This document shows positions 9,685 to 58,900 of a stretch of 64,000 nt of DNA, one piece after another (positions within the stretch are counted from its first letter, which is position 1; each line of letters begins with the position of its first letter). The notes under the pieces were generated by a model that was not told where the DNA came from, searched no databases, and saw nothing but the letters and a program-made list of their open reading frames with translations. The stretch is from Podarcis cretensis (Eukaryota): positions 79,360,001 to 79,424,000 of the forward strand of contig OX638149.1 in assembly GCA_951804945.1 (NCBI GenBank), in the 5' to 3' direction. A program made the position numbers and the translations under genes.

Positions 9685-9820
9685 CAGGGTTTCCCAAAAT
9701 TGGGGCTCCAGCTATTTTTGGACTACTGTTCCCCTCATCCCTGACTACTAGTCCTGCTAGCTAGGAACGATGGGATTTGTAGTCCAACAACAGCTGGAGA
9801 CCCAAGTTTGGGAAACCCTT
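9685..9820. mobile_element. hAT-like MITE
   Basis: TIRs AGGGTTTCCCAAA / TTTGGGAAACCCT, palindromic body, imperfect 8-bp TSD ctctagtg/ttgtagtg. Confidence 0.8.
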
Positions 9821-19583: not shown

Positions 19584-20006
19584 ATGGAGTCCAAAGGGAG
19601 CACCCGCGGTGGAAATAAGCCCGATGCCAAGACCGCCAGCTCAGGGAAGCCAGAGAAGCCCAACCCTGGCCCTGCCACAGCTGCTGATAAGAAAGAAGCC
19701 CCTTCAAAGGAGCAGCCGGCTCCTCCCGCCACCACCCCAGCAAAAAAGGCGGCAACAGCGGCAGCCAGTGAGGCAACCATGCTGAACAACCACGGCAACA
19801 TGAAGCCTAGCTCTGCTGGGGGAGCGGCGGAGGGCGCAGAGGCCGCAGGTCATTCCGCTGACTCTGAGCACAAAGGGAACAATGCGGAGGAGTCTCCGGG
19901 CAGCAGCATTTTTGAGAACATGAAGCCTCTGATCATCGTCGGAGGGGCGGCGGTGGCTGCCATTGCTCTGATTGTGGGAGTGGCTCTCCTTGCGCGGAAA
20001 AAATAA
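19584..20006 (+). CDS. CEND1: Cell cycle exit and neuronal differentiation protein 1 (BM88), 140 aa, single coding exon
   Basis: MESKG start in strong Kozak context (aagATGG), Pro/Ala/Lys-rich body with KKEAP and LNNH-N-KP motifs, C-terminal TM helix PLIIVGGAAVAAIALIVGVALLA plus RKK tail; exon acceptor TTGCAG ending 19348; synteny. Confidence 0.96.
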   Translation: MESKGSTRGGNKPDAKTASSGKPEKPNPGPATAADKKEAPSKEQPAPPATTPAKKAATAAASEATMLNNHGNMKPSSAGGAAEGAEAAGHSADSEHKGNNAEESPGSSIFENMKPLIIVGGAAVAAIALIVGVALLARKK

Positions 20007-31677: not shown

Positions 31678-34600
31678 GAGACAAAAAGTACAGGTACTTT
31701 TATCCTCACTTTTTGTACAAAATTAGCCTACCGTACTTCCTGCTTTGAGTGTTTTACTCATGTTCTCCCTAATAAATTCCTGCAGATGCCCATGAATACA
31801 AGAGTGTGTGTAGAAACTAGCCTACTGCACAAAGCTAATATTCTTTTTAGTTGATCTGCCCACTTTTGCCTCTGGCCTTGCACTCCACTGGCATGCAGCC
31901 TCCAGAAGGTAGCTCAGGTAGAAATGTGGCTTTTGCACTGAAGTTCTCCATCCCTGTACTGTTATCTTACCTGAGAGCCCTAGCCTGCTCTCTCCTCTCC
32001 CTACCTGAAAGGGGGGGGGGTGTCTTTCCACCATCAGATTCTACATCAGACTCTGACTTTGGAAAGAGACAGGGCAGTAAATATAGGTCTTTTAAGCGGA
32101 AACTATTAGTTTTAGGCTGTGTTATTTGGGAAAGGGAGAGGCATAGGTTTGAGCTGCAGTGCTGTTCATATGTGTAGCTTTGTGCATGTTTTACAAAATC
32201 AGAACCACTTGTTTGCATATGAATTGTCTATCTTATTTCAGTCAATCACCAATAAATGGTATGTCTTAAAAAAATGGGTGCGCTTATCAAGTCTTGCCAT
32301 GTATAAACTCTTGCATTTAACTAGTCTTTCCTCACATATTTTCATTAATTGAGCTTTGAACAATGATTCTGCTAGGGAAAGTCAATTGATTTCACTGGTG
32401 TTAATGAAGCAAACATGCGTTGGATCCAGGACTTCCGAATGAAATCTTACGCAAATCCTGCCAAGCTGGAATCAACTGATGGTGAGGTATCTTTTAACTT
32501 GCAACTCAGGCAGGGTCTGTTCTCTGTGCACAAACTGTTCTTATCTACACAGTATAGTGTTCCTTGCTGCCAACTCTGTCAAACTTAAGCACTCGTTGAT
32601 TTTAAATGTGATTGTTGAGCATGTGCTGAGAATGATGCTATTACTGTTTCTTTTGCATTTTTAGCAATGATTTAGAAAGAAAGGTTTTTTTTCTGTTTGC
32701 CACAATCTCAAGACCTCTCTTGTATCTGTGACAGAGAGCATTCAGATATGATAGGGAACTATGGTTTCCTTCTAGGGACGCGGGTGGCACTGTGGGTAAA
32801 ACCTCAGCGCCTAGGACTTGCCGATCGTCAGGTTGGCGGTTTGAATCCCCGCGGCGGGGTGCGCTCCCGTTGCTCGGTCCCAGCGCCTGCCAACGTAGCA
32901 GTTCGAAAGCGCCACCGGGTGCAAGTAGATAAATAGGGACCGCTTACTAGCGGGAAGGTAAACGGTGTTTCCTTGTGCTGCGCTGGCTCGCCAGATGCAG
33001 CTTTGTCACGCTGACCACGTGACCCGGAAGTGTCTTCAGACAGCGCTGGCCCCTGGCCTCTTAAACGAGATGGGCGCACAACCCCAGAGTCGGACACTAC
33101 TGGCCCGTACAGGCAGGGGTACCTTTACCTTTACCTTTATGGTTTCCTTCTACGACAGTAAACCATGGCAGATCTTTGGCTCACACATTCCTTCCTCCAC
33201 TCCTTTGCATCCAAGAGGAAATGGAAAGGTAGCACTTTCACTTTTAAACTGACAGCAGTTTCCTGTGATATCTAAGCTTGGCGAACTATGGTTTATTTCA
33301 ACTGTAACTTGTGATAACAAACCAGGATCAAGGAGTGGTTTGGGATCCTGGCTTGTTTTCAAACTATAGCTTGAACAAACATTGTTCAGCTCCCTGAGGG
33401 AACTGTGGTTTAAAATATTTTTGCACCATGGTTGCAAAGGAAATGGTGATGGGAGGGTGCCTTAAACCCAAGGCTCACCATGGTTTCCCATTGCATCTGA
33501 ATTGACATTTTCCTGCCAGTGACCTACCAGATCACTTTGGGGAGGAACAAGACCTGAAATAGGAGCATAAATCCTCGTAAGGCAGCCCCCTCCATAATGT
33601 TGCCTCTCATTTTTATTTGATGGGCAATTGGTTTGTCTGTAGTTTTCAGACGCAAACATGACCATGAGCAGTTTTCAGACATTCTGTCCTGTTTCAGTGT
33701 GAGCTCAAAACAGAAAACATTGGGGCGAAAGGGAATCTAGCCTGCTCTTAATAGTTTCGGAGTGTGGTCAATAGAGCCCATTCCAATGTTTTCTTGAACA
33801 GGCCCCTTCCAATTACCCTATAATGAAGAATCATTCCTGCGTGCACTTAGAGATAGTGTTGCTGTGGGAACAAAGCTGCCTATGGAAGGGACACAGTGGG
33901 GAAGGAGAGCAGCAACTATTCTTCTGAAGTCAGCTGCAGGGTTGTTTCCAAAGCTGTCCCCTTGCACCTTGTTGCACCCTGGAGGCTGTGGTTGGTTTGG
34001 AGTAATGGCTCTACCCCTCATTCCAGGTATGGTAATCCCCTTGATGGGCAGAACAGGGAAAAGGTGGAACAACTCTTCACACCTTCAAAATCACACCTGC
34101 CGTTGGAGCAGGTAAAGTAAGAGCCAGGTCACTGGGGGCAATGAATATGGGAGAGGGGTCATACATGTATTTGTAGAAAGGCACTGTTCCTGTAGTGCCA
34201 ACTCCAGGAATACTAGTTTGGGGGAATGAAGGGGAAGGCAAAGGCCATTATTAGGAGAGCAAGGATTTAATTTGCACATTATAGGACTTTAGTGACTACA
34301 AGCTGGGGGAGTGAATGGGGTTGCATGAAATATTTTGGGGTGTACCCGCTAACACATGGAGTCATCTCTGCCAGCCTGTCAACCTTGATAAACCTTTAGC
34401 TGGTTTTGAAATAAACAGAGCTTGCAAGTGTCATAAGCTTCTTTGCTGCTTCTTCCTCCCTAGGTGCCAGATACCATGCTTTGTTGATTCCAGACTGTCC
34501 TGGTGCCATGGTGGATCTGGCAAACAGTGGTTACTTAGCTAGAATATTGCAGCATTTCAGCTCTGAAAACAGTAAGTAAACCTCCTTGGGGATTTAGCTT

Positions 34601-37704: not shown

Positions 37705-38777
37705 GTATTTGTTACACTTTCACCTAGGAGTTTTGAGTTTGATGGCAGGTGCTAAAAAGACTGCTGTATTGAGATTACCTGAAAGTTAAAATAAGCTTCA
37801 GTTCAGTAAGCTACAAAAATTATTCTAGATAATGTCACCTCAACTTTTTTTTTAAAGGCAAAGACCATTAAGATTCTTATAAAGTGGAAATACAACAATT
37901 GAATGGAAAGGCATTTGGTCTTGTGGCTGTGGTATGTGTGCTGGTTGGTTCGCTTAATGCTTTTAAAGATAATTTTATTTAGTTTTTTTGTACCACCCAT
38001 GATTGTACAAGTCCATTTTTTTATGACCACAGAAGTTAGAGAAGCTGTTGAAGTTGGACTCAGTAAATATAATTTCACCCTCTTAAAAGTTTGTAGTGTA
38101 AGGACTTTTGCCTGTAGCTGATCAGAATTGTAATAGGCAACATCTAGAAGGCTTCAAATTGGCAAAGGCTGGTAACACGTAATATAGCTGTTTCACAAAA
38201 TGATTAGACAAATGCTCTTCTTAGCTGCTAGTAGCAGCTTGGCCATGTTTTTTGTGAAATTAATTTTAATTTACCTGTTAAGGCTGGCTTAGGTATTGTA
38301 AACCATGTATAGGACTACAGGGCAGATTTGTAGTCATACAATATTCTGGCACTACACCCAGCCACCATTTGGATTTCCAAACATGAAGTTTACACTACAG
38401 CTACGTACCTAAGTGCTGCATTCCTTAAGAGATCAAATTCTCATCAATTCAGACATCAAATCATGATTACAATTACGGTTTGCAAGTCTCACTTCAAACC
38501 ATAATTGGAGATCCTTAATCATTGCTTATTCAAGTTCATTTGGTACAGCTAGGTTAGTAATCATAATTGTATGTAAGGAAACAAACATCTTGCTTAGTGC
38601 TATGACTCCATCCATAGGAATAAAGTCTTCAGCTATTTTGATGAGACTTCTTCAACACACTTCCTGCATTATGGTAAGTGTTGGCAAGATCAACTTATCC
38701 TTTCTACGAAGTAGGAATGAAACATCATACCTATTACTTAGTACAAATACGTGAAAGCATTGTTGTACCACAATAAT

Positions 38778-38783
38778 TTTATT
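38778..38783 (-). terminator. TALDO1: Candidate TALDO1 poly(A) signal
   Basis: AATAAA on minus about 220 nt after the stop codon. Confidence 0.65.
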
Positions 38784-39004
38784 ATTACCACTACCACCAT
38801 CATTTTGAAGGGAAACCCTTCCAGTCAATTGGTCCTTTAGTCATCTGCAACTCCCCCCACAGCAGTATCAATTTTGATATACAAAAGTGCCAAACACACT
38901 GAGAATATGTTAAGTTTGCAAAATCATATAAAAAGCCTGGAATACAGAAAATCCATTCATATGCAGCTTGTACAGCCATACATCTTCCAAGAAGTTTGGC
39001 ATGC

Positions 39005-39037
39005 CTACTTTCCATTTGCAGCATTGAACATTCGTTC
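39005..39037 (-). CDS. TALDO1: TALDO1 exon 8 coding part
   Basis: [10 protein letters not shown]. Confidence 0.96.
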   Translation of the reverse strand, partial: ERMFNAANGK

Positions 39038-42000
39038 CTAAGAGAAGAAAAAATTCAAGCATTTAACAGAAGACAAAGCATATGAAACGTCCAGAAAATG
39101 TGTCAGTTTTCAACTTGTATAATTGAAAAACAGTATGGATTAGGCTTTAATAGATCTCGTCCATTTAATACTGATTTTATCAACATTTTACACTGCTTTA
39201 TATAAATAAAGCACTGTTTAAATTCAGTATTCTATATGGATATTGACAGTTCTAAACAATAATGCTAATCTCTAATATCCAGTTAGTCTTATGGAATTAT
39301 CATGTTTTAATCTTCTCCATTGGTGAACAGTTAGAAATGAAACTGAAACAGAAGCTGCAAATAAGCCACATTCTTATATGACCTAATGTATAGCAGACTG
39401 TAAGAAGATAAAACCCTTTTAAATAATGTTACCTTTATCATCTGCTCCAATTTAACTGCATCAGCAGCAAACTTTCTGATTCCATCAGACAACTTCTCCA
39501 CAGCCATTTGGTCCTCATTATGGAGCCAACGGAATGTCTTCTCATCCAGATGGATCTTCTTCAGGTCAGATGCTTGAGCTGAAATGAAGAATGCACAAAG
39601 CTACTGAATCTTAGAAATCTAGCAGGCTATTTGGATAGAACAGCTCTTAATGGGTGCGGAGTCCTTTTCACAAAATCACTAAATGCTAAGACAGCAATTG
39701 CTGCTGCTCAACTTTGCACAGCACCCACAGCAATGTTTATTCTGAACTCTTACAGAAATCAACCAGCTGTACAGAGTTCATGGTATGCATTTTTGTGTTT
39801 TTATATTGCAAACTACCCTGTGATCCTCAGATGAAGTACAATATAGAAAAAAATAAAATTAATAATAATAATAATAATAATAGTGTTGTACTTTAAGCTC
39901 CACAGTAGGTTCAGCAACCTAGGTACAAGAGCAAACATGCTGATCTAAAAACTATTTTGGATATTTGATTATCAAAAAGATGAGTTGACAACAGTGCTTC
40001 TCTAATAGTTACACACAAGGCCAGAGCCTTTAGATATATTTACTCCAACTCCCATCTGCTCTTATCCAGAGAATACACTTGTTCAACAGGAGAAAGTTTA
40101 GAATAAAAGATTACAAAAAACCCCACATTCTCCATGTGAGCTCTGGGGTCTATTAGATTAAAGGTAAAGGTAAAGGTACCCCTGCCCGTACGGGCCAGTC
40201 GTGTCCGACTCTGGGGTTGCGCCCCCATTGTGCTTAAGAGGCCGGGGGCCAGTGCTGTCCGAAGACACTTCCGGGTCACGTGGCCAGCGTGACAAGCTGC
40301 ATCTGGCGAGCCAGCACAGCACACGGAACGCCGTTTACCTTCCCACTAGTAAGCGGTCCCTATTTATCTACTTGCACCCGGGGGTGCTTTCAAACTGCTA
40401 GGTTGGCAGGCACTGGGACCGAGCAACAGGAGCGCACCCCGCCGCAGGGATTCGAGACGCCGACCTGACGATCGGCAAGTCCTAGGCGCTGAGGTTTTAC
40501 CCACACCACCACCCGTGTCCCTAAATCTATTAGATTACAATCCCTCTGATGCCGGAGTCTACATGGAGCCACAGCCCCTTAAATGCTTCAAAGAAATATA
40601 CGGTGATAAGGAATACCTTAACTGATTTACCCTAGTTACAGATAGGTAGCCGTGTTTGTCTGCCATAGTCAAAACAAAATAAAAAAATTCCTTCCAGTAG
40701 CACCTTAAAGACCAACTAAGTTAGTTCTTGGTATGAGCTTTTGTGTGCATGCACACTTCTTCAGATACACTTCTTGTTCTGATTTACCCTGTTAAGGTAG
40801 AAGTCAACCCTTAAACACATGAAGGACATTGTAATGAAAAACTGTTGGATTGTCACCCTAGTTAATCATCCTTAGTAAAAATAATTTGCAAGACTATCAC
40901 ACACAATATATAAAAGAAGACAACCTACCATCTTTGACACTGAGCATCGGGGTTAGCTTGCTGGTATCTTTACTGAGCTCTCCCAGAAGCTTTGGTGAAA
41001 TGGTGAGAAAGTCACAACCAGTCAGTGCTTTGATTTCTCCAGTGTTTCGAAATGAAGCTCCCATCACAATAGTTTTATAGCCAAACTTTTTGTAGTAATG
41101 GTAGATTTTAGTGACACTTTTCACACCTATAAAAGAATATGGAGTAGGTTTTGGGTTTTTTTAAAAAAAGAATACTATGCAAAATTACTTAACCTTGAAG
41201 AAGCTCTCAGACCTCAACTCTTTAAAAAAACACCTTTCTTAGTTTTTTAAAACTAAGCATTTGGGCTTGAGTGTGTTAAAATCTTAATATGTTTGTCACA
41301 GTCAATCAATTACCTGGGTCTTCTGATGGCTCGTATGTCTTCTTGTCTGTATTTGCTACATGCCAATCCAGAATACGCCCAACAAAAGGAGAAATGAGGG
41401 TGACTCCTGCTTCTGCACAGGCAACAGCCTGAGCAAAGGAAAACAGCAAGGTCAAGTTGCAGTGGATCCCATGCTGCTCTTCAAGGACCCTGTTAAAAGA
41501 CACAGCCTTAGAAGAGAATTGCTCCCCGCACCAACTATAATTATACTGCTGGAAAAAAAGGAATAAACAATTTACTACATATATACATTTTCAAATTACT
41601 AACTTTTAGAAATTTTTGATTTGTCAGTATTTACCCCACAAAAAACAACCTCCAGCTCTGACAATCTAGTTTCATATCAGAAACTGAATTACAGGTGTTT
41701 CAGTCTGGATAGGAGCAGGCACCTGAAAATAAGAGGTGACTGCTTAGTATTAGATTATATTGCATCTATACTGCATTAACACATAACGTACAAACTTACT
41801 TGGCAGCCTGAATGCCCTCCCATGTTGATGACAGCTTGATGAGGATGCGATCTTTACTAATTCCTGCTTCTTTATAAAGATCTATGAAGTGTCTGGCCTT
41901 CTTCACCATGCCTTCCTTGTCAAAAGACAACCTTTAAACCAAAGAATTTTTTAAAAATGTGCAAGCATTCATCTTTGTTTTTTTGTTTTGTTTTTAGTTT

Positions 42001-45000
42001 ACTGTATAGTATTTCTCCATTAATCATGGGTAGTAGGTAGAAAATCATTTGGCATTAATGTGTTTAAGCTTGAAGTGTTACAAATCTATTGGTTTGTATT
42101 TATGTGGAGAGGAGACCTTAGCGCATAACTGGACTTGTGACCAGGTTCTTGTTAAAAGTTTTGTTATTTTGGAAAAAGAAACAAATGGTGCCTCTTTGAA
42201 TTTTCTGGGATTTCCTCTGTCCAGCTAAACAGAACTTTTAACACAAAAATACTGAGCAGAATAATTTGTCAAGTCAGCACTTACCCTTATGTGGCAATGT
42301 CTATTTCGCTGTTTATACCCATGTTAGGAGCACATCTTTACAATGTGTGTACTCATGGCAATATGGTGTGCAGGCACCTTTCTACTAATTCTAGTATGTA
42401 TGTATGTATGTATGTATTAAATTACACCCCCGCTTTCCTAAAAATAAAAGTGGCTAGCATAATAAAAGCAAAACAAAAAATTAAACACATATTCTATAAA
42501 AGTAATAACATAAATAAGATCACCAACATAAATAACAAACAGCTTAGGACAGGGCTGGCAAGCATCTTATTCACAAAGGCCTTTCTTTAAAAAACACCTC
42601 CAAGAGCTTCACCACACGGCAGAAGATCATGGTGGTGGTGAAGGCATGAGCGAGAACTCCAGAGCTTAGGCATGATTACCGAGACGGCCCTCCTCCCATT
42701 AGTCCCAACAAGGAATTATGCCAAGATTGATTACACAAGAGGGCCTCAGCTGAGGAACTGATGAGCAGCCGGGTTCCTTTATTTTAAGGCAGAGACCTAG
42801 AAGGCAATTCAGGAGACACATACCTTGCATCTACTTCTGTGGACACACGGCCAGGTATCCTCTTCAGTATTTCTGCCCCAAACAATATAAAAAGCTTGTC
42901 ACAAGCATTTTTAACTTGGTCATCTTCTGACCTGGAAATAAACGATCACAAGAGAGAATAATGAATATCCAGGGAAGAGAATGATTATGTGATGATAATG
43001 TCCCCCAAAAAATGGCCACAGCTCAATTGGGAATGGCTAATTGTTTGAACTATGGTTTAGTCTTGGTTTCTGATAGCCATAACCTTTTCTTGGAGGGAGA
43101 TGACATGCCGTTAAATTACAATACAGGAGGGCCACAAGAAAATACACAATGGTACCATCATGAGGGGTCATGGCTGCCAAGTCTGAATATGAATACACTT
43201 AGCCACCATGTTCCCTTTGACAGAATACTAATGGACTTACCCGCCAAGTTTCCTCCCATATGCAATAGCATCTTCCACCAGTTGCTGGTAGGATGGCATC
43301 TGGGCTGCAGCAAGTATCAAAGAAGGGTTGGTGGTGGCATCCAGAGGCTTATACTCCTCAATAGCTATGGGAGACAAAAGCAGTCAGGAAAAAAAACCTG
43401 GTTGGCTAGCATGACAATAATTTGTTTTAAAGATGGGATAGGGTGGAATAAACTTAGCTAATTTGCTATTCCAGAAGCATAATCTTGTTAATAACAATTA
43501 AGCAGATGCCAAGTTTGGGAATCAATTAGTCAGATTGCTGTTCAAAGCGTGACTGAACCCCACAGTGACTAAGAATTGGAAGCTTAGTTCTCAAATGGCA
43601 AACATGAGCTGTACCACTTTTAGACTGCAGGTACGGCATCATAAAAGGGACGCAGGTGGCGCTGTGGGTTAAAGCCTCAGCGCCTAGGGCTTGCCGATCG
43701 AAAGGTCGGCGGTTCGAATCCCTGCGGCGGGGTGCGCTCCCGCTGCTCGGTCCCAGCGCCTGCCAACCTAGCAGTTCGAAAGCACCTCCGGGTGCAAGTA
43801 GATAAATAGGGACCGCTTACCAGCGGGAAGGTAAACGGCGTTTCTGTGTGCGGCTCTGGCTCGCCAGAGCAGCGATGTCACGCTGGCCACGTGACCCGGA
43901 AGTGTCTCCGGACAGCGCTGGCCCCTGGCCTCTTAAGTGAGATGGGCGCACAACCCCAGAGTCTGTCAAGACTGGCCCGTACGGGCAGGGGTTCCTTTAC
44001 CTTTACCTTTAGGGCATCATATGCCAGAATGCTTCTCCATACAAAAAACATAGCATGACTTCAAATTCTATGCCTTGTTCAGGACAGTTTGGTATACCAG
44101 TCTAAAGGCACAACCCTGACTCCCAAATACACCAGCTAGGATAAGTTAGGATGTGGTGTATCTCCCTAGGCCCCAGCTGAGCTGGTGTAAATAATTCACT
44201 TTGGTGTAAATACTTGCACCAGGCAGAGGGAAAGCCCTGCTAGCATAGGTCTTGAAAATATCAAAGACAATAGTGAGGTGTGTGTCAAAGGCACAGGATG
44301 GACAAAGAGGGAAGAGGAATGAACAAAGTTCTGTTGCTCCATCCCTTCAGTGGTCCTGCCCACAGGAAACAGGTGGCGCTGTGGTCTAAACCGCTGAGCT
44401 TCTTGGGCTTGCTGATTGGATTACCTGTGACGGGATGAGCTCCCATTGCTCTGTCCCGGCTCCTGACAGCCTAGCAGTTCAAAAGCACACCAGTGCAAGG
44501 AGATAAATAGGTACCACTGTAACGGGAAGGTGAATGGCATTTCTGTGCACTCTGGCTTCTGTCACGGTCCTCCGTGCACCAGTAGCTGTTTAGTCATGCT
44601 GGCCACATGACCCGGAAAGCTGTCTGTGGACAAACGCTGGCTCTCTTGGCTTGAAAGAGAGGTGAGCTCTGCACCCCATAGTTGCCTTTGACTGGACTTA
44701 ACCATCCTTTTTACCTTACCTGCCCACAGAACTCATGCAATTTACACACAGGTATAACGAACTTCATATTCGCCACATAGGAACCAACGTAAGGACAGAA
44801 AATGAAGGTTTATACTGTTTCCCTACCATCTTGTCTCCCCCTAGCAAGGACCAGTTAACTTACGTAAGAGATACAGCCAGTATATCAGATGTGTGTCATT
44901 CATTACCTAGAGTACTTGGTTAGGTCTATTCTTCCCAACTGGCATCTATGGAATTATTAGTTTTAGCACAATTTTGTTAATGATCACCATTTGTTCAGAA

Positions 45001-48000
45001 CATAGAGAAAGCAGTTGGGCTAGTGCTTAGATATTTTTCTCTTAAGCATTTGGATATGAACATCCTTGAGAATCAAAATTAAGACCAACAATGAAGAAGT
45101 CAAAGTTATGCAAACTACTCAGTTTATGAACTTCCTTATTTTTGAAGAATGAGGAAGTATTACTTCCTTCATCTCCTCTTCCCCTACCTTAATACTGCAT
45201 GCCATTTCCCATTTTCTGTAATATTTTATCACTCACAAATCCAGAATTCTGGCTTATACTGCATATTAGTATGCACTTTATAGTATGTAATCCCTCAGAC
45301 ATGTGAATGTAGAATCTAAATGCTTGATCCAACTCCTTAAATCAAGGAACAAAAATGCTTACTCATTGCAAGCTAAAGTAAACAATGTTCCACCCACTAT
45401 TCATACCTCTTTGTAGCATTTCAGTTTTATTTCAGACAATAGTTATGCAGCACAACACCCAAGATTAACAAAGCAAAGTTGAACTTCGATTTTTGAAGAG
45501 CTAATCCATTTTAAAGCAGAAGGGTCTTATAATTTAGATATGGAACAACTTCAGTCTTGTGCAGTTAATGATCTGATTTCCATCACACTAAGTCAGAGGT
45601 CACCCACATTTTTTGGACTAGTGGGCACACTGTGAATTTGGAGAATGTGCTGGGAGCACCAGTCACAAAATGAGCCACTGCACTAAGACAACCTTTGGAC
45701 AGCTTGACCCAGCAGCAAAAAGGACCAGAGGAGTGAAGTGGCTGTAAGTTCCTCTCCAGGATCCAACACACTCATGTACTTGGCCTGAGCCATGATGTGA
45801 CACAGCACAACATGTAAACCAAGCCAGTGAAGCCACTACATAGTAATTGAATCCCTGTGGGCTACCACAATATTTTGAATGTATAAAGCAGGAGTGTATT
45901 CTTACAACCCGTTTACAAAAGAAAGTTCTATACAGTACAAGAAACCCAGCTAAAACTTTGCCACTGGTCCATTACTGGATCACAGTTTACCTTCTACCCA
46001 ACCCTCTTATTGTTGTTCATCTATGTGAAAGGAACGGTATACAGAAAAATGGTCTATAGATTTCCTAAATACTAGCTCAAGTGTTTACTTTTAATGAATA
46101 AAGTAGAGAACTATGTGAAGTTTGATGGGTCTCCTAGAGTATGTAAAGCACAACTTCGAAGACACCCCCTTCCTCTCCCAAGTCAGGTAAGAATGTACAA
46201 GTCCTGAACCGATACCTGGCTAGATGGGGGCCAGTAACTAGAAGCTGAATCCTTACAAGACAAAGATTCCATGGCTGGGTGGCTTCCAGGTGCAGGAAAC
46301 AGGCAGACTGGATGGGGTTGCACTCCGCTAAAAAAGTAGATGCATAGTCTCACGGTGCTTGTAGAACCATCATTGATGGAGACCCAAGTGCCCCCCAAAG
46401 CCAGCAACCTTTTACCAACTTTTGACTGATGCACCAGCTATGGCCACATGCTGGTAAGCTCAAGGATGGATAACTGTAACATGCTCTGTATGCAGCTGTT
46501 CCTTAAACTGGTGAAACCATTTTGAAAATCTGAAGGCAACAACACACTTACTAGAAGGATGTTGTTTCACATGTGAAACTACAGCTGGGTGTAACTGAAG
46601 GAGAGTCATTGTAATCTGAAATGCCTTTGCACTGATAATCATCTCCAAATTACCCTAAGGACATGCCAGTTTTCTCGCCAAAGTTGCACAAGAGGCATCA
46701 CAATAATGCAATATGTCCATCAACCTTTGTGACATTCTTAGCTATGTTATGCAACATTTACTGGATGAACACAGCAGCCCTCAAGCACAAAATTAGTTTT
46801 CTGTGATTGACAAATAAGTTACGGTACCCTCACCAGAAAGAGGCTATACACAATTCTGCCCATTTTGGAAGTGAGTTATTTGACAAGGCTAATTTCAATA
46901 TCCCTGACACTATTACATATTCAGTAGCAATGCAGGTCTAGTTTTGTTTCTGCACCTTAAGCCACTTCCTTCCCTTTCCATAATGCTTCAAATTTGAAAA
47001 TATATTGTGAAACGTTTCTTATTCGTTATAATGAAACTTTAACAAATTACAACACAGGGAATCTCCTGTCCCAAAATTTCTTATTCATAATTTTCAGGAT
47101 TTTCTCCCTTCTGCATTTGCCAACTCAGTAATCATTAGAAGGATGCAGTAACCTGTTCAGTAGCAGAATATTTCAATGTCTTTCATAAGACTATTTACAA
47201 AATACACCTTGTCTGTTTAGCAGAGCTTTTATTTTGGGCTGTGCTTACTTGCTATAAAAAAGGCAAGGCTGCATTTAAGCAATTTAAATTCTGAATCAAG
47301 AAATGTTGCATTTGGCAAACAGTTCTAATTTCTATACAGCCAAGTGGTGGAATGCATACAACTCTGCCTTCAGTTATAGGATGCATTCAGATTAACTTCA
47401 TTAAAAAACTTATTTCATTACTGAAGCAATTTTTATCAGAAACTATATTTTCTGTTAATGAACAGCATACTTCATTACAACAGGCAAGAACTGAGTTGGG
47501 ATTTCCAGAAGGTCATAGTGAGTTCTGGACCAAGAACCTGCATCACAGCATCCTAGTACTACCTACAATTCATTGACTTCATGATTCAATTCAAGCAACA
47601 GGCTTTAACTTTTAGACTTGGAGCTGGTGCCCAGTGTACCTTGGCTATGAGTGTTCCCCGAAAAAGGGAAGTAATTATTAAACTGTGGCCCAGCGTGTCG
47701 CCACTAGAGAAGAAAGGATTATATCCAAGCAAGTTGTTCTTAACAGTAGTCCTACTGAAATCATTGGCTCTTTTACTATGTTGCTAGCTTTGGCTACTTT
47801 TAAAAATATTTTAGTTATACTGCATTGCTCTTCGACATAATTCAGTTTAGCAGAAATTAAATGAAGATCTTGGCTCAACAACTGCTTCCTCCACGCTCAA
47901 GAGCTAAACTGGGTCTATGGATTGCCTGCTTCCAACAATCTGAAAGCTGCAACAGCACCTACTAAACGCATGTACAAGCCTTCTGTAAGCGAGTCCATTT

Positions 48001-48661
48001 CTGATGTGCATGAAGTTTGCAAGAACCGAAATAAATCCAAGCACGCGCGCACCACCTCTAACTTTGACTCTGCCGTCTCGGGTTGGGCAGCTATGGCAGC
48101 AACCACCGAACAACTAATATGCTCCTAAACAAATGATCGAAGGCACGCGGCAGACTATGGGAGGCAGGGAGCAAACCCGAAAGGGAAGCAGCAGCTGAAC
48201 CTATGCCCTTTCCACGACCCTTTGAGAAGCAGCGGCCCGGCGTTGTTGCCTCCTCCCCACGGAAGCAGCGCCGCCGGCTTGGCCAAGAAAGCCTCGTTAA
48301 TCCAATTTGCTTCAGCTGCGTCTCCCCTTCCCGCCCGACGCCATTAGCCGGTTTCCCAGCACCCGAGGCGGAACTCTTGCACCCAGCTGCCAAAGAAGCA
48401 GAGCGAGACCCGGCGCGTCTGCGCGGGACCGACGGCCATCGCCGCGCACGCGGCTCCTCGGAGGCATGGAAGCTGCTGAAGCAGCCGGGAGCGCGGCGCT
48501 TGGAGCCTCAGAGACCCCGCTGGCTCAGCCGGCGCCGCCCCCTCCTCCCTCTCGCCGCCCTCACCGTGGAAGTCCCCTGTGTCAGCCACCACGGTGGTGT
48601 GCTGCTTGAGCTGCTCCAAGGCCGACTCCATCTTCTGCCTCTTCACTGGGGAAACCGACAT
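39005..48661 (-). CDS. TALDO1: Transaldolase, 337 aa
   Basis: complement(join(39005-39037,39433-39578,40929-41126,41314-41489,41800-41931,42824-42931,43241-43364,48565-48661)) = 1014 nt; motifs [41 protein letters not shown] (Schiff-base Lys), [15 protein letters not shown]. Confidence 0.98.
39433..39578 (-). CDS. TALDO1: TALDO1 exon 7
   Basis: [49 protein letters not shown]. Confidence 0.97.
40161..40521 (-). mobile_element. Sauria SINE, full length, TALDO1 intron 6
   Basis: Reverse-complement homologue of the 32775 copy; TSD TCTATTAGATTA at 40149-40160 and 40526-40537. Confidence 0.93.
40634..40778 (-). mobile_element. Penelope-like pseudo-LTR fragment with a minimal hammerhead remnant
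   Basis: 12-bp flanking duplication CTGATTTACCCT (40622-40633, 40779-40790); near-identical 80-nt copy at 54505-54586; CTGAAGA-palindrome-(G>A)AAA-GCTC on minus. Confidence 0.75.
40929..41126 (-). CDS. TALDO1: TALDO1 exon 6
   Basis: [48 protein letters not shown]...SVKD. Confidence 0.97.
41314..41489 (-). CDS. TALDO1: TALDO1 exon 5
   Basis: [43 protein letters not shown]...EDP. Confidence 0.97.
41800..41931 (-). CDS. TALDO1: TALDO1 exon 4
   Basis: [43 protein letters not shown]. Confidence 0.97.
42395..42770 (-). mobile_element. Old L2-like fragment with (ATGT)n tail
   Basis: Tetranucleotide tail plus ACCCCCGCTTTCC; by eye. Confidence 0.4.
42824..42931 (-). CDS. TALDO1: TALDO1 exon 3
   Basis: [35 protein letters not shown]. 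Confidence 0.97.
43241..43364 (-). CDS. TALDO1: TALDO1 exon 2
   Basis: [41 protein letters not shown]. Confidence 0.97.
43647..44010 (+). mobile_element. Young Sauria SINE, TALDO1 intron 1
   Basis: Intact A box and B box GGTTCGAATCCC, CpG-rich, ACCTTT tail, TSD GGCATCATA. Confidence 0.94.
44366..44718 (+). mobile_element. Older Sauria SINE subfamily copy
   Basis: Diverged homologue; TSD CCTGCCCACAG (44355-44365, 44719-44729). Confidence 0.88.
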
Positions 48662-49300
48662 GGTCCACCTGCGCCTCGCGAGACCCTTTATATATTGTGC
48701 GCCCTTCGACGGAAGCGTTGGCAAGGGGCGCGCGCACTTCTTCCGCCCTTCCTCTCTCGCGGCACTCGAGGGCTGCGCGTGACAGGCGGCGCCCGAGGCG
48801 GCTTCTGCGTGCGGGGGCTACAGGCAGGGGCGGGGTCAAGAAGAGGCGCCTGCGCCTGCGCCGCGGCCGAACGGGTTTCTCCCATTCTCTTCAGCCCGCC
48901 TCCTCGAGAAGAGAGAACCAACTAACTCGGGAAGAAGTTGCGCAGAAGGGCTCGAGTGGGAAGCGCGGGCGGGAGAGCGAGAGACCGGGCGGCATTGCTT
49001 CAAGGTCTGCAGCCAATCGCGGGCAGCGGCTGACCGTAGGACGAGCGAATGGAGGCCGCGTGAGGAGAGGGAAGCAACCAATCGCAGGAGGGGGAGGCGG
49101 CGGCGGCGGAGAATGGAAAAAGCGGCTGCTCTCTCTCTCTCTGTGGTTTCGTCTGGGACACGTGAAGGCTCACAGCGTTCAAAAGTAGTTAAAGGTGGTG
49201 GAAGGTGGTGGATGATCTGACAGCGTAGCTCGTGGAGTGCTCGCCTTCTTTTTCTCCTGCGACGGCCTGATCGCGGCTCACTTGTAGCATGCGCCACACC
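48040..49300. promoter_or_regulatory. TALDO1: CpG island / TALDO1 promoter: TATA (48686-48694, minus), CTCGCGAGA motif (48675-48683), GC box, NRF1-like GCGCCTGCGC repeats (about 48846-48862), CCAAT boxes (about 49013, 49078)
   Basis: High CpG density around exon 1; motifs read directly. Confidence 0.9.
48565..48661 (-). CDS. TALDO1: TALDO1 coding exon 1
   Basis: [32 protein letters not shown]; donor G|GTGAG. Confidence 0.97.
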
Positions 49301-49375
49301 CACCCACACCTAGAATACTGTATCATGAATTATTTAGGGTAACTTCGGAATTAAAATAAATAATACGAAGCCTGT

Positions 49376-49738
49376 GGGACGCAGGTGGCGCTGTGGGTTA
49401 AAGCCTCAGCGCCTAGGGCTTGCCGATCGAAAGGTCGGCGGTTCGAATCCCTGCGGCGGGGTGCGCTCCCGCTGCTCGGTCCCAGCGCCTGCCAACCTAG
49501 CAGTTCGAAAGCACCTCCGGGTGCAAGTAGATAAATAGGGACCGCTTACCAGCGGGAAGGTAAACGGCGTTTCCGTGTGCGGCTCTGGCTTGCCAGAGCA
49601 GCTTCGTCACGCTGGCCACGTGACCCGGAAGTGTCTCCGGACAGCGCTGGCCCCTGGCCTCTTAAGTGAGATGGGCGCACAACCCCAGAGTCTGTCAAGA
49701 CTGGCCCGTACGGGCAGGGGTACCTTTACCTTTACCTT
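49376..49738 (+). mobile_element. Young Sauria SINE upstream of TALDO1
   Basis: About 6 mismatches to the 43647 copy; 14-bp TSD TAATACGAAGCCTG (49361-49374, 49739-49752). Confidence 0.94.
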
Positions 49739-49877
49739 TAATACGAAGCCTGAGAGAGAGTCTTATGAAGCTTGCTAATAGTCCTAGGCATTTAAAAAAA
49801 TAAACATACATTAAAACTTAATTTTCAAGCCCTTTTCACTGCAAAATCATGAATTATCTTCTAAAGCCAATTTCTCT

Positions 49878-50547
49878 TGTTGTAAACAAAAATTGCCCTT
49901 TTCCCTTATGGGGTATCCAAGAGCCCATATAGAGTCCTTACATAGGTTCCCTATTGGTAGGAGAAAATAACAGAGGCCAACCAGAGAATATTGAGAAGCG
50001 AAGCAGCTAGTAAGCTTGATCTTTATTGATCTGTTGCAACAGGGTGCTCCCCTCACACACAGGAGAGGAGGAGGACCCAGAAAAATGGTGTGCAAGGCCT
50101 TATAAAGACTTTTGAAATTGCCACCCTGTAGATCAAGACCACCCCCAGAAACATACATACATACATCACAGAAGAAGTGTAACCTAAGACCACCCCTCAG
50201 ATATATCATACCTACATCACAGAAATTTAAAAGTTGTTTTTCTCTTGTCCTTGATTATCTCCTGTCTGGCAGGTTACTTGATTGGATTTCCTGGGTAGCC
50301 TGGCCAGTCTTTTGTAATGATAAATACTTAGTTCCTGGGCCAGGTCACAGGCTCACACCCTATTCAAACACAGACAGGATTTGTGAAAGAAAAGACAATG
50401 GGGAGGCTTTTCCATTTTGACCTTGCAGAGAAAAGATTTGGTCAGTTTAGGAATCAAAATGGTTCCAGGTTGGCCTTCCTGTGCTGATCTATGTATGTGC
50501 TTGGTTGGCACACCCACGAACACCACCATATTTCCAAGACCACAACA
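49878..50547 (-). mobile_element. Solo LTR (ERV-like), about 670 bp
   Basis: TGTTGT...ACAACA termini; U3-type direct repeats at 50135-50173 and 50186-50224; TATA-like site about 50100-50106 then AATAAA 50022-50027 on minus; TSD imperfect. Confidence 0.7.
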
Positions 50548-51728
50548 TTCCTATTACACTCTTTCAAAAACACACTCAGTAGACGAACTACCTAGGCATC
50601 TGAGCTGTGTGTGTGTGTGTGAACTATACGTTAAACTCACATATGAATGCAGACGTTTACTCTGTATTCAAGGGCCTGCAAGGGAGAAGTTATGTGCTTT
50701 AAATGAATGGCTTGGATCTGCCTTACATCACTGGAATCAATGTCCCTGATTATTATGGTGCCTTCTCCCTCCCACTGACTTCACCCCTCCTGCCTAAGTA
50801 CAAGGAACTGGTAGTTCTTGAAAGGACATGTCGTGTAAAGAATTACAAATCTCTGTAGGCTCGTTCTGGCATTTGCCTGAACATGCAGGCACTGAAAGTG
50901 AAAAATAAGTGGCAAGCTTTGCCACTAACATCCTTGTGTACACCCCCCCCCCCACACACAGTGTCTACTCAAATTGCATAGAATGCAAATAGACTTCTCT
51001 GCACCATCTACGACTTCCCTGCAGACTTCCTTGTGCAACACAAGGTGAAGGCTGAGAACTGAGAAGGGGTAGAATGAGCATGCTGCAGATAGGGCTTGCT
51101 TGTGCGCCCCACCCATCTACACCTTTTGAGTGTTCACCTGAACACACCATTGACCTGTGAGACTGCATGTCTTAGTTTACTGCACAAGCATCTAACTCCT
51201 TCAATTCTGCAATTCACTGTACATAATATTGCTTGAGGTCTTGCCTGCTTGCATTGGAACTTCTCTACCCCCAAGAAGCTACTAGATCAGAAGCAAGCAA
51301 ACTATAGTAGCATTGAAACTGGTTAACTGCAGTAAGTTCTTATAGGCAATAGTGTACATCACCAGATGATCACCTGATAAAGTCAGCTGTTGTGTACAGA
51401 TGATCTGATGAAATAAGTGGTGGCTTACAAGAGCCCATGGAATAAGAAATCAGCTTGCTTGAACTGTCCTGTAACTACATGTGTAAAATCTACACCAGCT
51501 ACAGTGTACATTCCCTTTCAACTTTCTTATTTACATTAACCTGGTACAAATGTGCAGGGAAAGCTCAAAGCTGCATTTTGTACAGTGTTCTGGATTACCC
51601 AATCTTGTGCTTCTGGTTTGTGCAATACATGAATCGCAAATGGCCATTTAGTCAGATTTTCCCTTTCAGGAAAATCCAGTAAGTTAAACAAAAATACAAA
51701 AACCATTGCCAATGTCCCATTGGCAATA

Positions 51729-52059
51729 CAGTGGTGCCTCGCGAGACGAAAAGAATCCGTTCCGCGAGTCTCTTCGTCTAGCGTTTTTTTCGTCTTGCGA
51801 AGCAAGCCCATTGACGGCTTAGCGGATTAGCGCTATTGCCGGCTAAGCGGCTTTTAGTGGCTTTTAGCGGATAAGCGGCTTAGCGGCTTAGAAAAAGGGG
51901 GGGGGAGGGGAAAAAAGTTGGAAAAACTCGCAAGACATTTTCGTCTTGCCAAGCAAGCCCATAGGGAAATTCGTCTTGCGAAGCACCTCCAAAATGGAAA
52001 ACCCTTTCGTCTAGCGGGTTTTTCGTCTTGCGAGGCATTCGTCTTGCGGGGCACCACTG
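51729..52059. mobile_element. Tc1/mariner-pogo (Tigger-like) MITE
   Basis: TA TSD; 22-bp TIR CAGTGGTGCCTCGCGAGACGAA (20/22 match); multiple internal TTCGTCTTGC repeats; CpG-rich, so young. Confidence 0.9.
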
Positions 52060-53434
52060 TATCTCAATGACATGTTTACAGTATTTAGTCCCAGCCCAGA
52101 AGCACCTTCTTAGTAAGCTGTTGCCCCCAATTATAAGCAGCACTCTCAGAAACTCTCAGTAATGCAGGTGCCTCCTAGACAACTAAGACAATTAGACACT
52201 AAGACTAATGGCTAATTCCATCCAAGTGGGAAACATGCACATGGATTAGCTTATAAGTACAACTAAACATTTTTGTAGGTTCAAATATTGTGCAGCATTA
52301 ATCTAGCAACTGGAATAAAGGGTGCAATTTTAAATTACAAATTTGACACATGTTTAGAAATAAACACAAACCATGGGTAAATTGTCTTTTAATTTTTCAG
52401 CCATCTTGCCATCCCCGTTTACAGTACATACATACAGTTCAGCATCATTAATCAAGTCATGTTTGGTTGAACAAATACGTCTAATCCCGCAAAGATAGAT
52501 TTCCATTAGATATGCAGCAAATACTCCGTTAAGTCAACATGGTTTATCAAATGCAGTCACCAAGTCAATGGTTGGTCCACTGACTTGTCTGAGATAGGAC
52601 TATTCTATGGCTCTATCTGTGGCCACAGTAGTGTTACCAAATGCGTCTACCAGCAGTATACCCAATAATATGTTCACCACAGATTTAACAGAATTAGAAT
52701 GTCCACTTCTATTAATGTTAGCCATTGTTAACACACGTTAAAATATTAGAACAGAGCAATTTATTAATTTCTTATATTTGTATCTCACCCTTCAGGGAGC
52801 TCAGACGTGGTTTTGTTTTACTTTGCTAGACTTTCATTACTGCCACTCTCTATAACAAGCAGTTTGCTTGCTTGATCAGCTCTGTAAGTCTGTTAAACAA
52901 AAAATAAGTGCATATTCTGCTAAGGATATACTTGCCAGCTTCCATACATAATATAAACTTTATACTAGCTCTGATTTGTAACATGTTAAATTATCTATGC
53001 GCAGCTACTATTAAAATATATAATGTGAACATAATTTTCATCTAGTTATACCTTCATGAGTTTTTGTTCTTAAGAACCTTGACTACATTTTATGTACAGA
53101 TAATCTAAATCCACTGTGGCTAATGTACAAATAATAGTAATAGATGAAGGAACATAAAGCAGTTATGTGTGTATTTCCTAAAGGCTTGGTCCTGCAAAAT
53201 TCTCCAGGCATGCAAAGGAATCGAGCTTCTTTAATGACAGTATAATGGGGCTGTTCATACCATGTACAGGCTACATGTTGCAAGTTTTTGTAGGAATCAG
53301 CTCTAGGTTAAATATATTTGCATTTTCAGACTTCAAAAGTCTAATTAAAAGAGTATGTAGCAGTCATTTTTGTTCATACAAGTTTGTCAGGCTATTTCCA
53401 GATGTACTACTAGACATTAAAGCTTAAATAAAGT

Positions 53435-53440
53435 TTTATT
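53435..53440 (-). terminator. EPS8L2: Candidate EPS8L2 poly(A) signal
   Basis: AATAAA on minus about 2.4 kb after the stop codon; other hexamers exist. Confidence 0.4.
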
Positions 53441-54504
53441 GACCCCCACCATCACCAGCTATTGTTACAGATTGTGGTTGCATGTCAACTGCACGCTTTA
53501 CAATGCTGGAGTAAGTAGTTTCCCAGCAAGTGTGGGAGAAAGGTATAGTCGATCATCTCCTATAATATGTACAGAACAAGGACAAAGCATCTGAGAGCCA
53601 CTGCTGCTGTGGGGTTTGGCTTATATCTAATTGTCCAAAGGTGATAATTGGCTATAAAAGGGAGCAGTGTGGCATCTGCATCTTAGCATGATGAACTGAC
53701 TGCAAACTCTGTTACTATCAAACTGCAGCATGAAACTGACTAAGAATTATAAAAATATAATTTGGGGTGCCTTTATATTGTCTTAGGGGTTCCAGGCAAG
53801 TACAGCATGTACTGCATGAACTTTCTCACCTTTTTCTTCTTCATCATATGGACTGAAAACTTTTTATTTAATGGACGTTTCAATTCATTACAATATTTCC
53901 TAGACATGAATGGGTGGTATTCAGCTAAATGCACAAGTGGAATGATTATTAGTTGCATGGCAGGACTTCCCATCTCCCTTGCAGCCCTAACCCTTTGTGC
54001 CATTCCCCCAATCTGTTCTGGAAGGTTGGGGAAAACCCAGAGCAGATTTAGGGGGTGCATGGGAAGGGAGAGGAGGGAAAGTACCACTGTGCAAGTGGAA
54101 GTTGTTCTGCTCACGGAAAGCGCTGCTAAGTGCTACATTGAATACAACCCAATTTGTCTAATAGGCCATATAATCTGCAAATTGGATAGCTGGATGCTTT
54201 GACGATGGTGATTGCACATCAGGTTGAAATTAAATCTCATATTTTCAATCGTCTTTTGATTGGTTATGATCAACTGGGTAATGCTGTAGCTCATAAGGAT
54301 GAGTGCAAAGACTTTTAACCTATTAACTATTACACAGTTAATAGGTTGCCACAAAGGTAATTCAAATATGCATCCATTTTCCATTCTTTTCAGCTCCACT
54401 TCTTTCTTGAAAACAATAGTCTTGTATAGTACAGGGAGGGAGAGAAAGTTGTCCCAAATCTTGTATTTAGTAACTAGCTATTACAATTCATCTAAAGTTG
54501 CAAA

Positions 54505-54586
54505 AGTTACAGATAGGTAGCCGTGTTGGTCTGCCATAGTCAAAACAAAATAAAAAAATTCCTTCCAGTAGCACCTTAAAGACCAA
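54505..54586 (-). mobile_element. Penelope-like fragment (truncated copy of the 40634 element)
   Basis: Near-identical to 40634-40714. Confidence 0.75.
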
Positions 54587-55870
54587 GGTCATTCTTCACT
54601 GTAAAGCCTGTTCTAGGCACTGCTTAGTAATGGGTGAAATAATGGGAAGCACAAAATGTAAAGACTCCAGGTTTCTTCTAATGTCAGTCAGTGAGAAAAG
54701 GCATCTGATGAATATATATATGTATACAGTGCTAAAGACCAATTCCAATGTGATCCACACTGCTGACATTCCTTTTTTCATGATAGTTTGAATATTTAAT
54801 TACCTAAACATCATGGATACTCCATGCCTTAAGGGTCACAATAGCACTGTGTGGGGTCTTTGCAAGAATGGAGGCATTGAGAGTTAGCCCCAAATATGAT
54901 GATGGAGACTTAAAGGTATGATGACTAGAGGGGTGCTGGGTGGGGAGGCAGGGACACCAATGCAACTGCTAGGCCTAAAGTTTATCAAAGGACTTCAGAA
55001 TATGCATTTAGCTCATATTACAACTTTCCCTGGAGATACAGCAGTTAATGGTTAGGACATTAAAACTGCCCTCAGATAAACCGTGGCTATGTTTGGTACA
55101 TGATGGCTTCCTTGAACCCTTTTGATGGCATATAAAAGCAGTGAATGCAGTTTAGAGCTAGGGAGGGAGAAAAGACGAGTTGGTTGCCAACTTCATTCTA
55201 GAAAAATCCAAAACCAACTTTAAATCACTTGCCTGCTAGTTGATCATCATCTGGTCTTGTGTTGGTTTTTTTTTAAAAAAACATGTCACACAAGTGGCCG
55301 CAGCAGTAATCTCTCCCCTCCCCTTCCCACGTTAGGCTAATCCAGGCTTTCTTGTGTTGTGTACAAAAACACAACTGAATGGTCAGCCGGCCTGTAGTTT
55401 TCAAAATACAGGGCCTTGTATCATTTCTGCCCCCAGCCCATTCTATGAGGCTTTTTAAAAGTAGTGAAGGGCCACACAGGAAGCTGACTGCCATAGATCA
55501 TTTTGAGGCCATTTTGCTTCAATCCAGCCTTTGCTCAGAACGTCAGTTCCTATCCTTACCATGCTCTGAACTTCACGCACATAACATTTATGTATAAAAT
55601 ATAGAGATATAAAAATAATACTTCATACAATACTAGAACCTCTCTCCCAATGCATGCCACGTTAGTGAGGGAGCATGGCCTCACTAACAGTGCTTGAAGG
55701 AACAGTCAATCTGGATGGCAATTTACATTGCTTAGGTGCTGATTCCAGCAGTCTTTTTTCCCCATTTTTCTTTGTTTTGCTCTCTTTCCCTTTTTGTTTT
55801 TTGTTGTTGCTTTTTTGCAAATGTGTGGGGGGACAGTGTTGGGGCGGGGGTGGGGATAAGAAGATAAAAC

Positions 55871-55942: not shown

Positions 55943-58900
55943 CTGGAATAAAAGCAAAAGATAAAGAATGCAAACTTTTCAGTGACCTTTGAGTTACTAT
56001 ACATTTCTAATTTCTAATTTGAGTGACTTTGGTGAAAGATGAAAGGAAGGAACAGAGGTGAAAGCTCAGAGCTGTGACCTACAGAAACTATTGTGCCTTA
56101 AACACTGAAGTTGTGGGTTTCGTATCTGTTTCTCAATAAAAACACTTGATAGATGTGACTGCAACATTTTGCACTAAAACTAAGTCTTCTACACTTTGCT
56201 TAACTGTAAAACTCCTGCACAACCAGCCAATTCTCCACTACTTCCCCACTTATTTCATCACTATTTTAGGGTCAATATTATGGTTGTCATTCCTCCAGCT
56301 TTGGTTGCTGATTGTCAAAGGAATAACTGCACAGATAAATTCATCAGTACATTTTGAATAAAATCTCAGGAATACTGCACACAAGTATATTCATCACTCA
56401 TTGACAGTAGCATCAATAACTTTTATACTATATCATGTTAGCTCAACACAGAATTCCTTTCAGAGATGGGATATACATCAATACATAGAGACTGCAATAT
56501 ATCACGAATCAGGATAGCTTATGGAACTATTGAAGATCACAACAGCTAAAGAAGACTAAGGCAAGTGTGGGCCTCCAGATGTTATGGGACTCAAACTCAC
56601 ATTATCCCAGATCACTGGCCATAGTGGCTGGGAGTAATGGGAGGTGGAGTCCAATAATATCCAAAGGACCACAGGTTCTCCAACCCGATACAATGGGCAA
56701 TTTTTAGGCCCTAAAATGTACCATGGTCATGAGAGCATGTTTACCCATGATAGTCACTTATCTGTCAAACAGTCAAACATGTATATTTAAGTGGTGTCTA
56801 AAGTTTCAAATGCTGGCAACTAGTTTTTGAGTTATTGTTTTTTGAAACTACCATTGCATTTCAGTCACTTCTTTTCCCGAAATGTTTTTGGGTTGCTTGA
56901 AACTTGGCAACCCTGCACAGTCCAATGAAACATCACAGTAAAGCGCAGGCCATGTCAAATAGCCTAGTATTGTCAATGAAGTTTAAAAATGTTGGTGAAC
57001 AAACTTCATCAGCTCCTTGAAAAATGTATCTTGCTTTGAAAATTCACATTCTGCTTTGAATGTGGAAAATTAATGAATGCCTGCTTCTGCCCTGAGCTTA
57101 TTTACAATAGCAAATTGGTTTGAATTCTTGTACCAGAGAAACAGAGTCTGTTAGTCTAAGCACTACAATTTCTCCTTCTGTAGGAGGAACTAGCTTCAAT
57201 AACAATGTTCTTATTACCCACTTTTTACAATCTTGATGCAGCCTTCAAATGTTCACCATTTTGAAACCATCTAATATTTTTGTCCTAATAAATAATGTGC
57301 CATCTTACCTCTAGGAGAGACTTTTGCACTGTGATTTTACTATACACTCTGGCACCCTCTTCTCCACATACTTTTTTCAACTCTTCTTTGTTCAGAGAGA
57401 AAAGTTGTGCCCCTGTTAGTATGCCAAGATGGTCCACAGTTCTGGGAAAACATAAGCAAGTAGCTTTATTTAAATTCTTATTAGGTTTGAGAGGTTAAAT
57501 AAAAAGACAGGAGACCATCAATGACATCTTGTCCCTCAAAGTCCAATAGCTACCAAGTAGGTTTCTGAATGTACAGGTAATTTGGTTATGTTTCATAACT
57601 TTGGCCTCTATTCTTAAATTTCATTAAACAGGACCTCAAAGCTCAGTTGAGAAGGTCCCTTAGCCAGCTTCTCAGTGCTTGAGGTGTAAGAAATTTGAGA
57701 AGAGGCTTAGCTCCATGGCTATGGAACCTTCAGAGCACATGATGGTAAATACTTTTAGACCCCTTTCTTCAGCCCCTTTAGCAGTGTGGGTGCTGCCACC
57801 TCTGTATGCTATTCTAGGTAAATATAATGCTCCCATCTGTATGGTTCAACCTGACACTGTATTGACACCCCTATACAGTGGTACTTCAGGTTACATACGC
57901 TTCGGGTTACATGCGCTTTAGGTTACAGACTCCGCTAACCCAGAAATAGTACCTCGGGTTAAGAACTTTGCTTCAGGATGAGAACAGAAATCGTGCTCTG
58001 GCGGTGCGGCGGCAGCAGGAGGCCCCATTAGCTAAAGTGGTGCTTCAGGTTAAGAACAGTTTCAGGTTAAGAACAGACCTCCGGAACAAATTAAGTACTT
58101 AACCCGGGGTACCACTGCATAATGAACAGACTGCCCAAGGGCCCATTCATCACTTTCATGGCATATTAACTTCTGACTATTGCAAGATTAACTGTGGAGG
58201 TAACACAACCCATTCCCTTGCTACTAGAGTAAAACTGAGCACACACATCCCAGTGATCTGCAAACAAGTTTTACATTGTGTTCCTCTGAAATAGTCCAGC
58301 TGGTTCCTCCAACCAGCTGGACTATTCCAGAAGAAAGAAGATTGAAGAAGCTCTCAAAACAACAGAGACCTGAGAAAACATATGGTTTGGAGTGCAGGAC
58401 TCCCTTCTGAATTTCTTCTCTCCCTGCACCCCTGCTGTGCAAGTAACTTAGTTATTAAGAAAACTTTTTATTCTGCTGTTCCAAGTTCACCTTGCATGAT
58501 ACAAGAGGAGAATGAAAGAAGAGTAGAAAAAGGAACACACCCATGGACTACACAGAATTAGATAAATTAACAGGAAGGGTCTGGAACCGACGAGATCACA
58601 AGTTTACCAAGGACTGGAGTAAATTTGTGGACTATATGAAAAGCATATGTGATACACAAATAATGTTTGTGGGTTTACAGGAAGCTTTGTGAAGAAATAA
58701 TATTAGAAGCACTGTAAAAAAGGGAACAAGGGAATAGGATTATTTGAAACAAAAGGCAATGTTAAATTTAGAATTGCGGATAGAAGATTAGAAAACGGAA
58801 GATTCGCGGATGAGCTGAAGGAAGTCAAAATTATGTATCTGTGATAATATTGAAAATGTATGTTTAAATCTTGTATTGGAAATTGAATAAAAATAATTTA

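Follow-up and report, generated by a model that had tools for sequence, protein, structure and literature searches.

A young Sauria-type SINE inverted against an older copy around exons 2–6 of TALDO1 in Podarcis cretensis: a real but ordinary arrangement

Exonic circular RNAs (circRNAs) driven by short interspersed elements (SINEs) have been described for primate Alu copies and in a study of five mammals, according to which circles accompany young elements peculiar to a species and arise for the most part as splicing noise (PMC8516420). In these systems full-length, nearly identical copies in opposite orientation flank a block of constitutive exons, and one arm is young and restricted to a lineage. 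We have analysed a comparable arrangement in the lizard Podarcis cretensis, in a window of 64,000 nt (GenBank assembly GCA_951804945.1, contig OX638149.1, positions 79,360,001 to 79,424,000 of the forward strand; all positions below are counted within this window), where two SINEs bracket exons 2–6 of the transaldolase gene TALDO1. Unlike the primate and mammalian cases, the elements are lizard SINEs of the Sauria/Squam1 type, one arm is likely still segregating and the circle is predicted from sequence alone. We favour, with a probability of roughly 60%, the reading that a young copy (B) came to lie opposite an older one (A), likely as a chance pair in a recent burst of the family. The pre-mRNA of carriers would then hold a duplex of roughly 360 bp that is likely edited and yields at most trace amounts of back-spliced or exon-skipped RNA, with no function. 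The arrangement is real but ordinary.

TALDO1 lies on the minus strand and has eight exons, with GT..AG at every intron and all seven donors close to consensus; its product is 337 aa long. The coding part of exon 1 (97 nt, 48565..48661, with Asp27) falls outside the predicted circle, which would consist of exon 2 (124 nt, 43241..43364), exon 3 (108 nt, 42824..42931), exon 4 (132 nt, 41800..41931, with Lys142), exon 5 (176 nt, 41314..41489) and exon 6 (198 nt, 40929..41126); the exon 2 acceptor and the exon 6 donor are the would-be back-splice sites. Exon 7 (146 nt, 39433..39578), whose acceptor would serve a hypothetical exon 1–7 skip, and the coding part of exon 8 including the stop (39005..39037) complete the gene, all exons being on the minus strand. 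Both exon 4 and exon 1 align in register with human transaldolase 1f05 (E 7e-17 and 4e-12), exon 1 with its residues 1–32. Pfam assigned PF00923 (transaldolase) to exons 4 and 6, two of the four pieces submitted, and no family to TALDO1 exon 1 or to the tested exon of the neighbouring gene. Exon 6 has a single match across the genome. We take Lys142 of exon 4 to be the Schiff-base (catalytic) lysine of transaldolase.

SINE A (40161-40521, minus strand, sense in the pre-mRNA) is located in intron 6, 407 nt past the exon 6 donor, and the very young SINE B (43647-44010, plus strand, antisense in the pre-mRNA) in intron 1, 282 nt before the exon 2 acceptor; these values agree with the distances of about 400 and 280 nt given in the initial annotation of this window. 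A gap of 3,125 nt, which holds the five exons, separates the arms. Each has a 12-nt target-site duplication, at 40149-40160 and 40526-40537 for A and, with one mismatch, at 43632-43643 and 44010-44021 for B. Aligned as reverse complements, A and B share 325 identities, with 35 mismatches and 5 gaps, that is 89.0% against the roughly 90% previously estimated by eye; the longest perfect run is 33 bp, or 73 when G-U pairs are allowed. Predicted folding gives −719.5 kcal/mol for the B:A duplex versus −154 and −157 kcal/mol for the single arms, a predicted gain of about 410 kcal/mol over separate folds. An older plus-strand copy in intron 1, C (44366..44718, with an 11-nt target-site duplication), had been proposed to back up B. 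The copy is present, and we rejected it as a backup arm, as it is a weak partner of A on identity (64% globally, 76% over 140 nt locally) and on predicted duplex (−381 kcal/mol when co-folded with A, a gain of about 115 kcal/mol). Except for this weak copy, introns 1 and 6 contain no competing close copy.

The geometry is of the kind that promotes back-splicing, as the initial annotation had it, and the predicted duplex is strong; a circle in carriers of both copies is possible. The pair could also be silent, if the splicing of intron 1 is over by the time RNA polymerase reaches intron 6; the arms would then rarely meet, and editing and circles would stay at background. Splicing is co-transcriptional, five exons and more than 3 kb separate the arms, each arm is predicted to fold on itself and all donors are near consensus, yet 3 kb are transcribed within a minute or two and pairing is predicted to be favoured over self-folding of the arms by about 400 kcal/mol. 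Predicted stability only weakly separated skippable from constitutive human exons (PMC13019027), which speaks for silence; on the other side, SINE editing is on record in a lizard, with 8,663 editing sites within SINEs in brain RNA (PMC5625713). Silence of the pair appears to us unlikely, if well within reason.

The relative age of the two arms can be read from assembled contigs of related organisms, numbered here with X (X1 and X3 are from organism A, X20 and X21 from organism E, the contigs of which hardly differ from the window sequence, and X23 is from organism F). All 23 sets considered consist of contigs, and 18 of them were guessed to be RNA. The stretch 39400-44900 was compared with X3, which is one of these 18, and with X20, X21 and X23, three of the five others; on this stretch sequence from other SINE copies accumulates over both A and B. 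Among the joints listed, one contig in X3 and one in X23 join 43631 directly to 44010; the B site is empty in both. In X21, a 1,350-nt contig departs from the window at the same base as the empty-site contigs (43631), with 112 letters remaining. In X20, one contig ends at 43633 and another begins at 44010 after 28 unaligned letters, which points to an empty allele, as such an allele would give a 30-letter overlap; the break between these contigs suggests a second allele. Judged from these contig ends, an empty B allele is likely in X20 and X21 of organism E, and B is likely unfixed and still segregating. The circle had been called lizard-specific, and this was overstated, given that arm B is absent in X3 and X23 and likely segregates in organism E.

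The 5′ junction of A is spanned by contigs of X20, X21 and X23, and the left edge of C by contigs of X3 and X23. The nearest scored relatives of A are 93–95% identical to it (39 other copies scored). For B, 40 of 1,764 candidate copies were scored, and every one of them is 99–100% identical. The spanned A junction where the B site is empty, together with the near-identical relatives of B, indicates that A came first and that B is recent. A 41-mer present in B and in a further copy of the window, D, and absent from A and from a fifth copy, G, has 10,853 exact matches in the genome, and eight copies at least 97% like B were found in 600 kb of sampled sequence; as an observation on the whole genome, these counts indicate a very recent SINE burst. 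Presence/absence differences of such SINEs are ordinary in these lizards: two Podarcis species differ at 19,914 + 31,580 SINE loci (PMC10670947).

To what extent such a pair is expected by chance depends on copy number. Exact matches to a 27-mer common to A, B, D and G number 32,020 in the genome, and 60 evenly spaced 10-kb samples (600 kb) gave 78 hits in all, with 14 comparable copies, corresponding to about 35,000 genome-wide. Among the first 100 listed places of the 27-mer, 14 have an inverted partner within 3.5 kb, and seven inverted versus five direct pairs were counted at that distance; inverted pairs are not rarer. The genome would therefore contain about 1,190 (random placement) or 2,240 (extrapolation) inverted pairs within 3.5 kb, one per 10–20 windows of 64 kb. 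With about 1,200–2,200 close inverted pairs genome-wide, a scan of windows meets one often.

In carriers, under the chance-pair reading, transcription would reach B before A, which follows about 3.1 kb further on. With intron 1 still unspliced at that time, pairing of the arms is predicted, and it would draw the exon 6 donor towards the acceptor of exon 2. The paired arms would be a substrate for editing, the expected outcome being edited pre-mRNA with trace circles. Such an outcome fits the view of circles as splicing noise (PMC8516420) as well as the 232,493 Alu pairs of either orientation that flank human constitutive exons (PMC13019027). Several points weigh against this reading. That the yield is ‘trace’ and the pre-mRNA ‘edited’ is assumed. 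The geometry is above that of an average pair, and the yield could exceed trace because the arms are full-length, lie close to the splice sites concerned and have no close competitor but the weak C. The chance of such a pair in introns 1 and 6 alone is about 0.001–0.002; the pair counts cover all inverted pairs, whether or not they bracket exons, and the 100 places examined come from the initial 4.9 Mb of a single contig and are no random sample. Finally, it is contig ends in two runs, and not a listed joint, that point to the polymorphism in organism E.

Apart from back-splicing, the pair could loop out exons 2–6. The exon 1–7–8 message is predicted to be in frame, with a 91-aa product that ends at the normal stop and lacks Lys142; the initial annotation had inferred an in-frame exon 1–exon 7 product without the catalytic lysine, and its sequence arithmetic holds. 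As the skip keeps the frame and the normal stop, the message would presumably escape nonsense-mediated decay. A precedent for a single insertion acting in this way is reportedly the Alu at TBXT, where loop-out causes exon skipping; there, as here, the partners are a young and an older copy on either side of exons, and the TALDO1 skip would likewise be in frame. In TALDO1 the loop would take in five exons and 2.4 kb instead of one exon, the skip is predicted only and the insertion is likely not fixed. The B allele might on these grounds be a splicing modifier, which diverts a sizeable share of the pre-mRNA to the exon 2–6 circle and the exon 1–7–8 message and leaves carriers with less transaldolase. 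The pair geometry is near ideal for this, and what weighs on the other side is that all five exons have to be looped out at once and that selection would probably act against an allele which costs much of a housekeeping enzyme, yet the assembly carries the allele. In the survey of inverted Alu pairs in human, to which the same likeness and differences apply, exons between such pairs mostly stay constitutive (PMC13019027). We consider an effect of this size improbable.

The exon joints were compared in contigs as well. Four of the 18 contig sets that we guessed to be RNA were compared on 40800-43600. Introns 2–5 are bridged at identical places in all four, including X3, where B is missing, and the exon 6–7 joint is present in X3. 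Loose contig ends lead from exon 6 to exon 7 in three of the four sets and from exon 2 to exon 1 in two. No back joint from exon 6 to exon 2 was found in any of the four on this stretch; since rare forms drop out of contigs and B is missing from X3, the one set of the four that was checked at B, the missing joint is no evidence against a circle.

Exons 2–6 sum to 124+108+132+176+198 = 738 nt, or 246 codons, and begin and end in phase 1. On recomputation we obtained the same values as the initial annotation, along with the back-splice junction it had predicted, which reads Asp-Ala-Ile and contains no stop. One of the three frames of the circle has no stop at all and holds four ATGs, two of them with G at −3 and +4. 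This resembles the rolling-circle ORF circles of human (bioRxiv 10.1101/473207), which have a length divisible by three, the host frame, no stop and internal ATGs; unlike them, the lizard circle is predicted only, and the property is shared with five other blocks of TALDO1 exons and with the 14% of human circles that form a stop-free ring in the host frame. Among the 21 contiguous blocks of internal exons six are divisible by three, and all six, including exons 2–5, give stop-free rings. The stop-free frame follows from a coding-exon block whose length divides by three: it is a by-product of exon phase, independent of the SINEs, and represents no more than chance. The identical exon joints in X3, which lacks B, show that the frame is older than the pair.

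An open ring with internal ATGs invites the further reading that the circle is made and translated in rolling-circle fashion into a repeating transaldolase fragment with a role of its own. Asp27 and the first barrel strand are required in transaldolase. The predicted unit covers residues 34–279; it lacks residues 1–33, hence Asp27, and residues 280–337, the last 58 of the protein, and a translated concatemer would likely be misfolded and degraded. When three human rings of this type were over-expressed, all gave concatemers, which lends the reading some credit, but two of the three products were rapidly degraded (bioRxiv 10.1101/473207), and another study saw no sign of translation from any circle (bioRxiv 10.1101/328104). 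The frame itself arises automatically, also where B is absent, and an arm missing from close relatives speaks against an evolved role. Rolling-circle translation has no support here, and we consider a functional product of this kind highly implausible.

The likely segregation of B makes a natural comparison of alleles with and without the insertion possible. Tentatively, and with some doubt, one may see in this Sauria SINE insertion a natural switch that turns a TALDO1 circular RNA and an exon 1–7 skip on or off in wild lizards. Back-splicing driven by a SINE that is not yet fixed would then be met for the first time in squamates, in one of maybe hundreds of such switches from the same burst. 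If the circle is made in carriers alone, the locus would offer a within-species test of circRNAs as by-products of young insertions, extended to squamates. If not, the pair would be one among over a thousand close inverted pairs in the genome, with no special meaning. A literature search found no paper on Sauria SINEs with circular RNA or on circTALDO1, and none on lizard circles among the titles listed; circRNA databases and supplementary tables were outside this search and may hold a human TALDO1 circle.

The assignment of the copies to the Sauria/Squam1 type rests on tail, target-site duplication and copy number, compared with a published description. Sauria SINEs are marked by an (ACCTTT)n tail and a target-site duplication that begins with T (PMC13295347). 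Such a 3′ tail is found on A, B, D and G, and has decayed in C; the target-site duplication starts with T (element strand) in four of the five copies, namely A, B, D and G (12–15 nt), and not in the old C. Judged by eye against a consensus, the pol III A and B boxes of a putative tRNA-derived head look intact in B and D, and the B box of A looks altered. In length (about 360 nt), tail, T-starting duplication and very high copy number the copies are like the polymorphic Sauria SINEs of lacertids (PMC10670947, PMC13295347); those papers concern insertion and phylogeny, whereas here splicing is considered. The antisense tails of B and C contain donor-like 9-mers within intron 1 (about 44000-44006 and 44714-44719, minus strand), with five to six of seven consensus positions. 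These could seed a cryptic exon, which would be a second route for B to affect splicing.

The initial annotation had missed both SINE G (32775-33138), in an intron of the plus-strand neighbour gene, and SINE D (49376-49739). As competing pairing partners they were ruled out, since neither falls within the mapped transcript of TALDO1. SINE D (98.4% like B) is a young insertion beside the GC-rich promoter region, with about 700 nt between it and the TALDO1 start codon downstream. The neighbour gene, seen from about 29811 on and convergent with TALDO1, is presumably GATD1.

Between the exon 6 donor and SINE A, intron 6 also carries a short high-copy insertion (40634..40778, minus strand, sense to TALDO1) with a 12-nt target-site duplication; an 82-nt piece of it recurs at 54505-54586, and its site is empty in X15. 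It contains a minimal hammerhead-like core in which GAAA reads AAAA, while two of three such cores in 864 kb keep GAAA. Rfam gave two chance-level matches and no hammerhead family over 38000-55000. Minimal hammerheads require a dimer (PMC4209133), and the insertion is likely an inactive Penelope-like relic, a label that draws in part on that source; if active, it would sever arm A from the pre-mRNA. In X1 an intron 6 contig has 867 nt, close to what would be measured if both A and the relic were missing (about 820 + 60), which is suggestive only and was not used as evidence. Elsewhere in the window, self-complementary elements at 576-686, 9686-9819 and 62205-62397, and by eye at about 51730-52060 and 57875-58120, resemble relics of miniature inverted-repeat DNA transposons.

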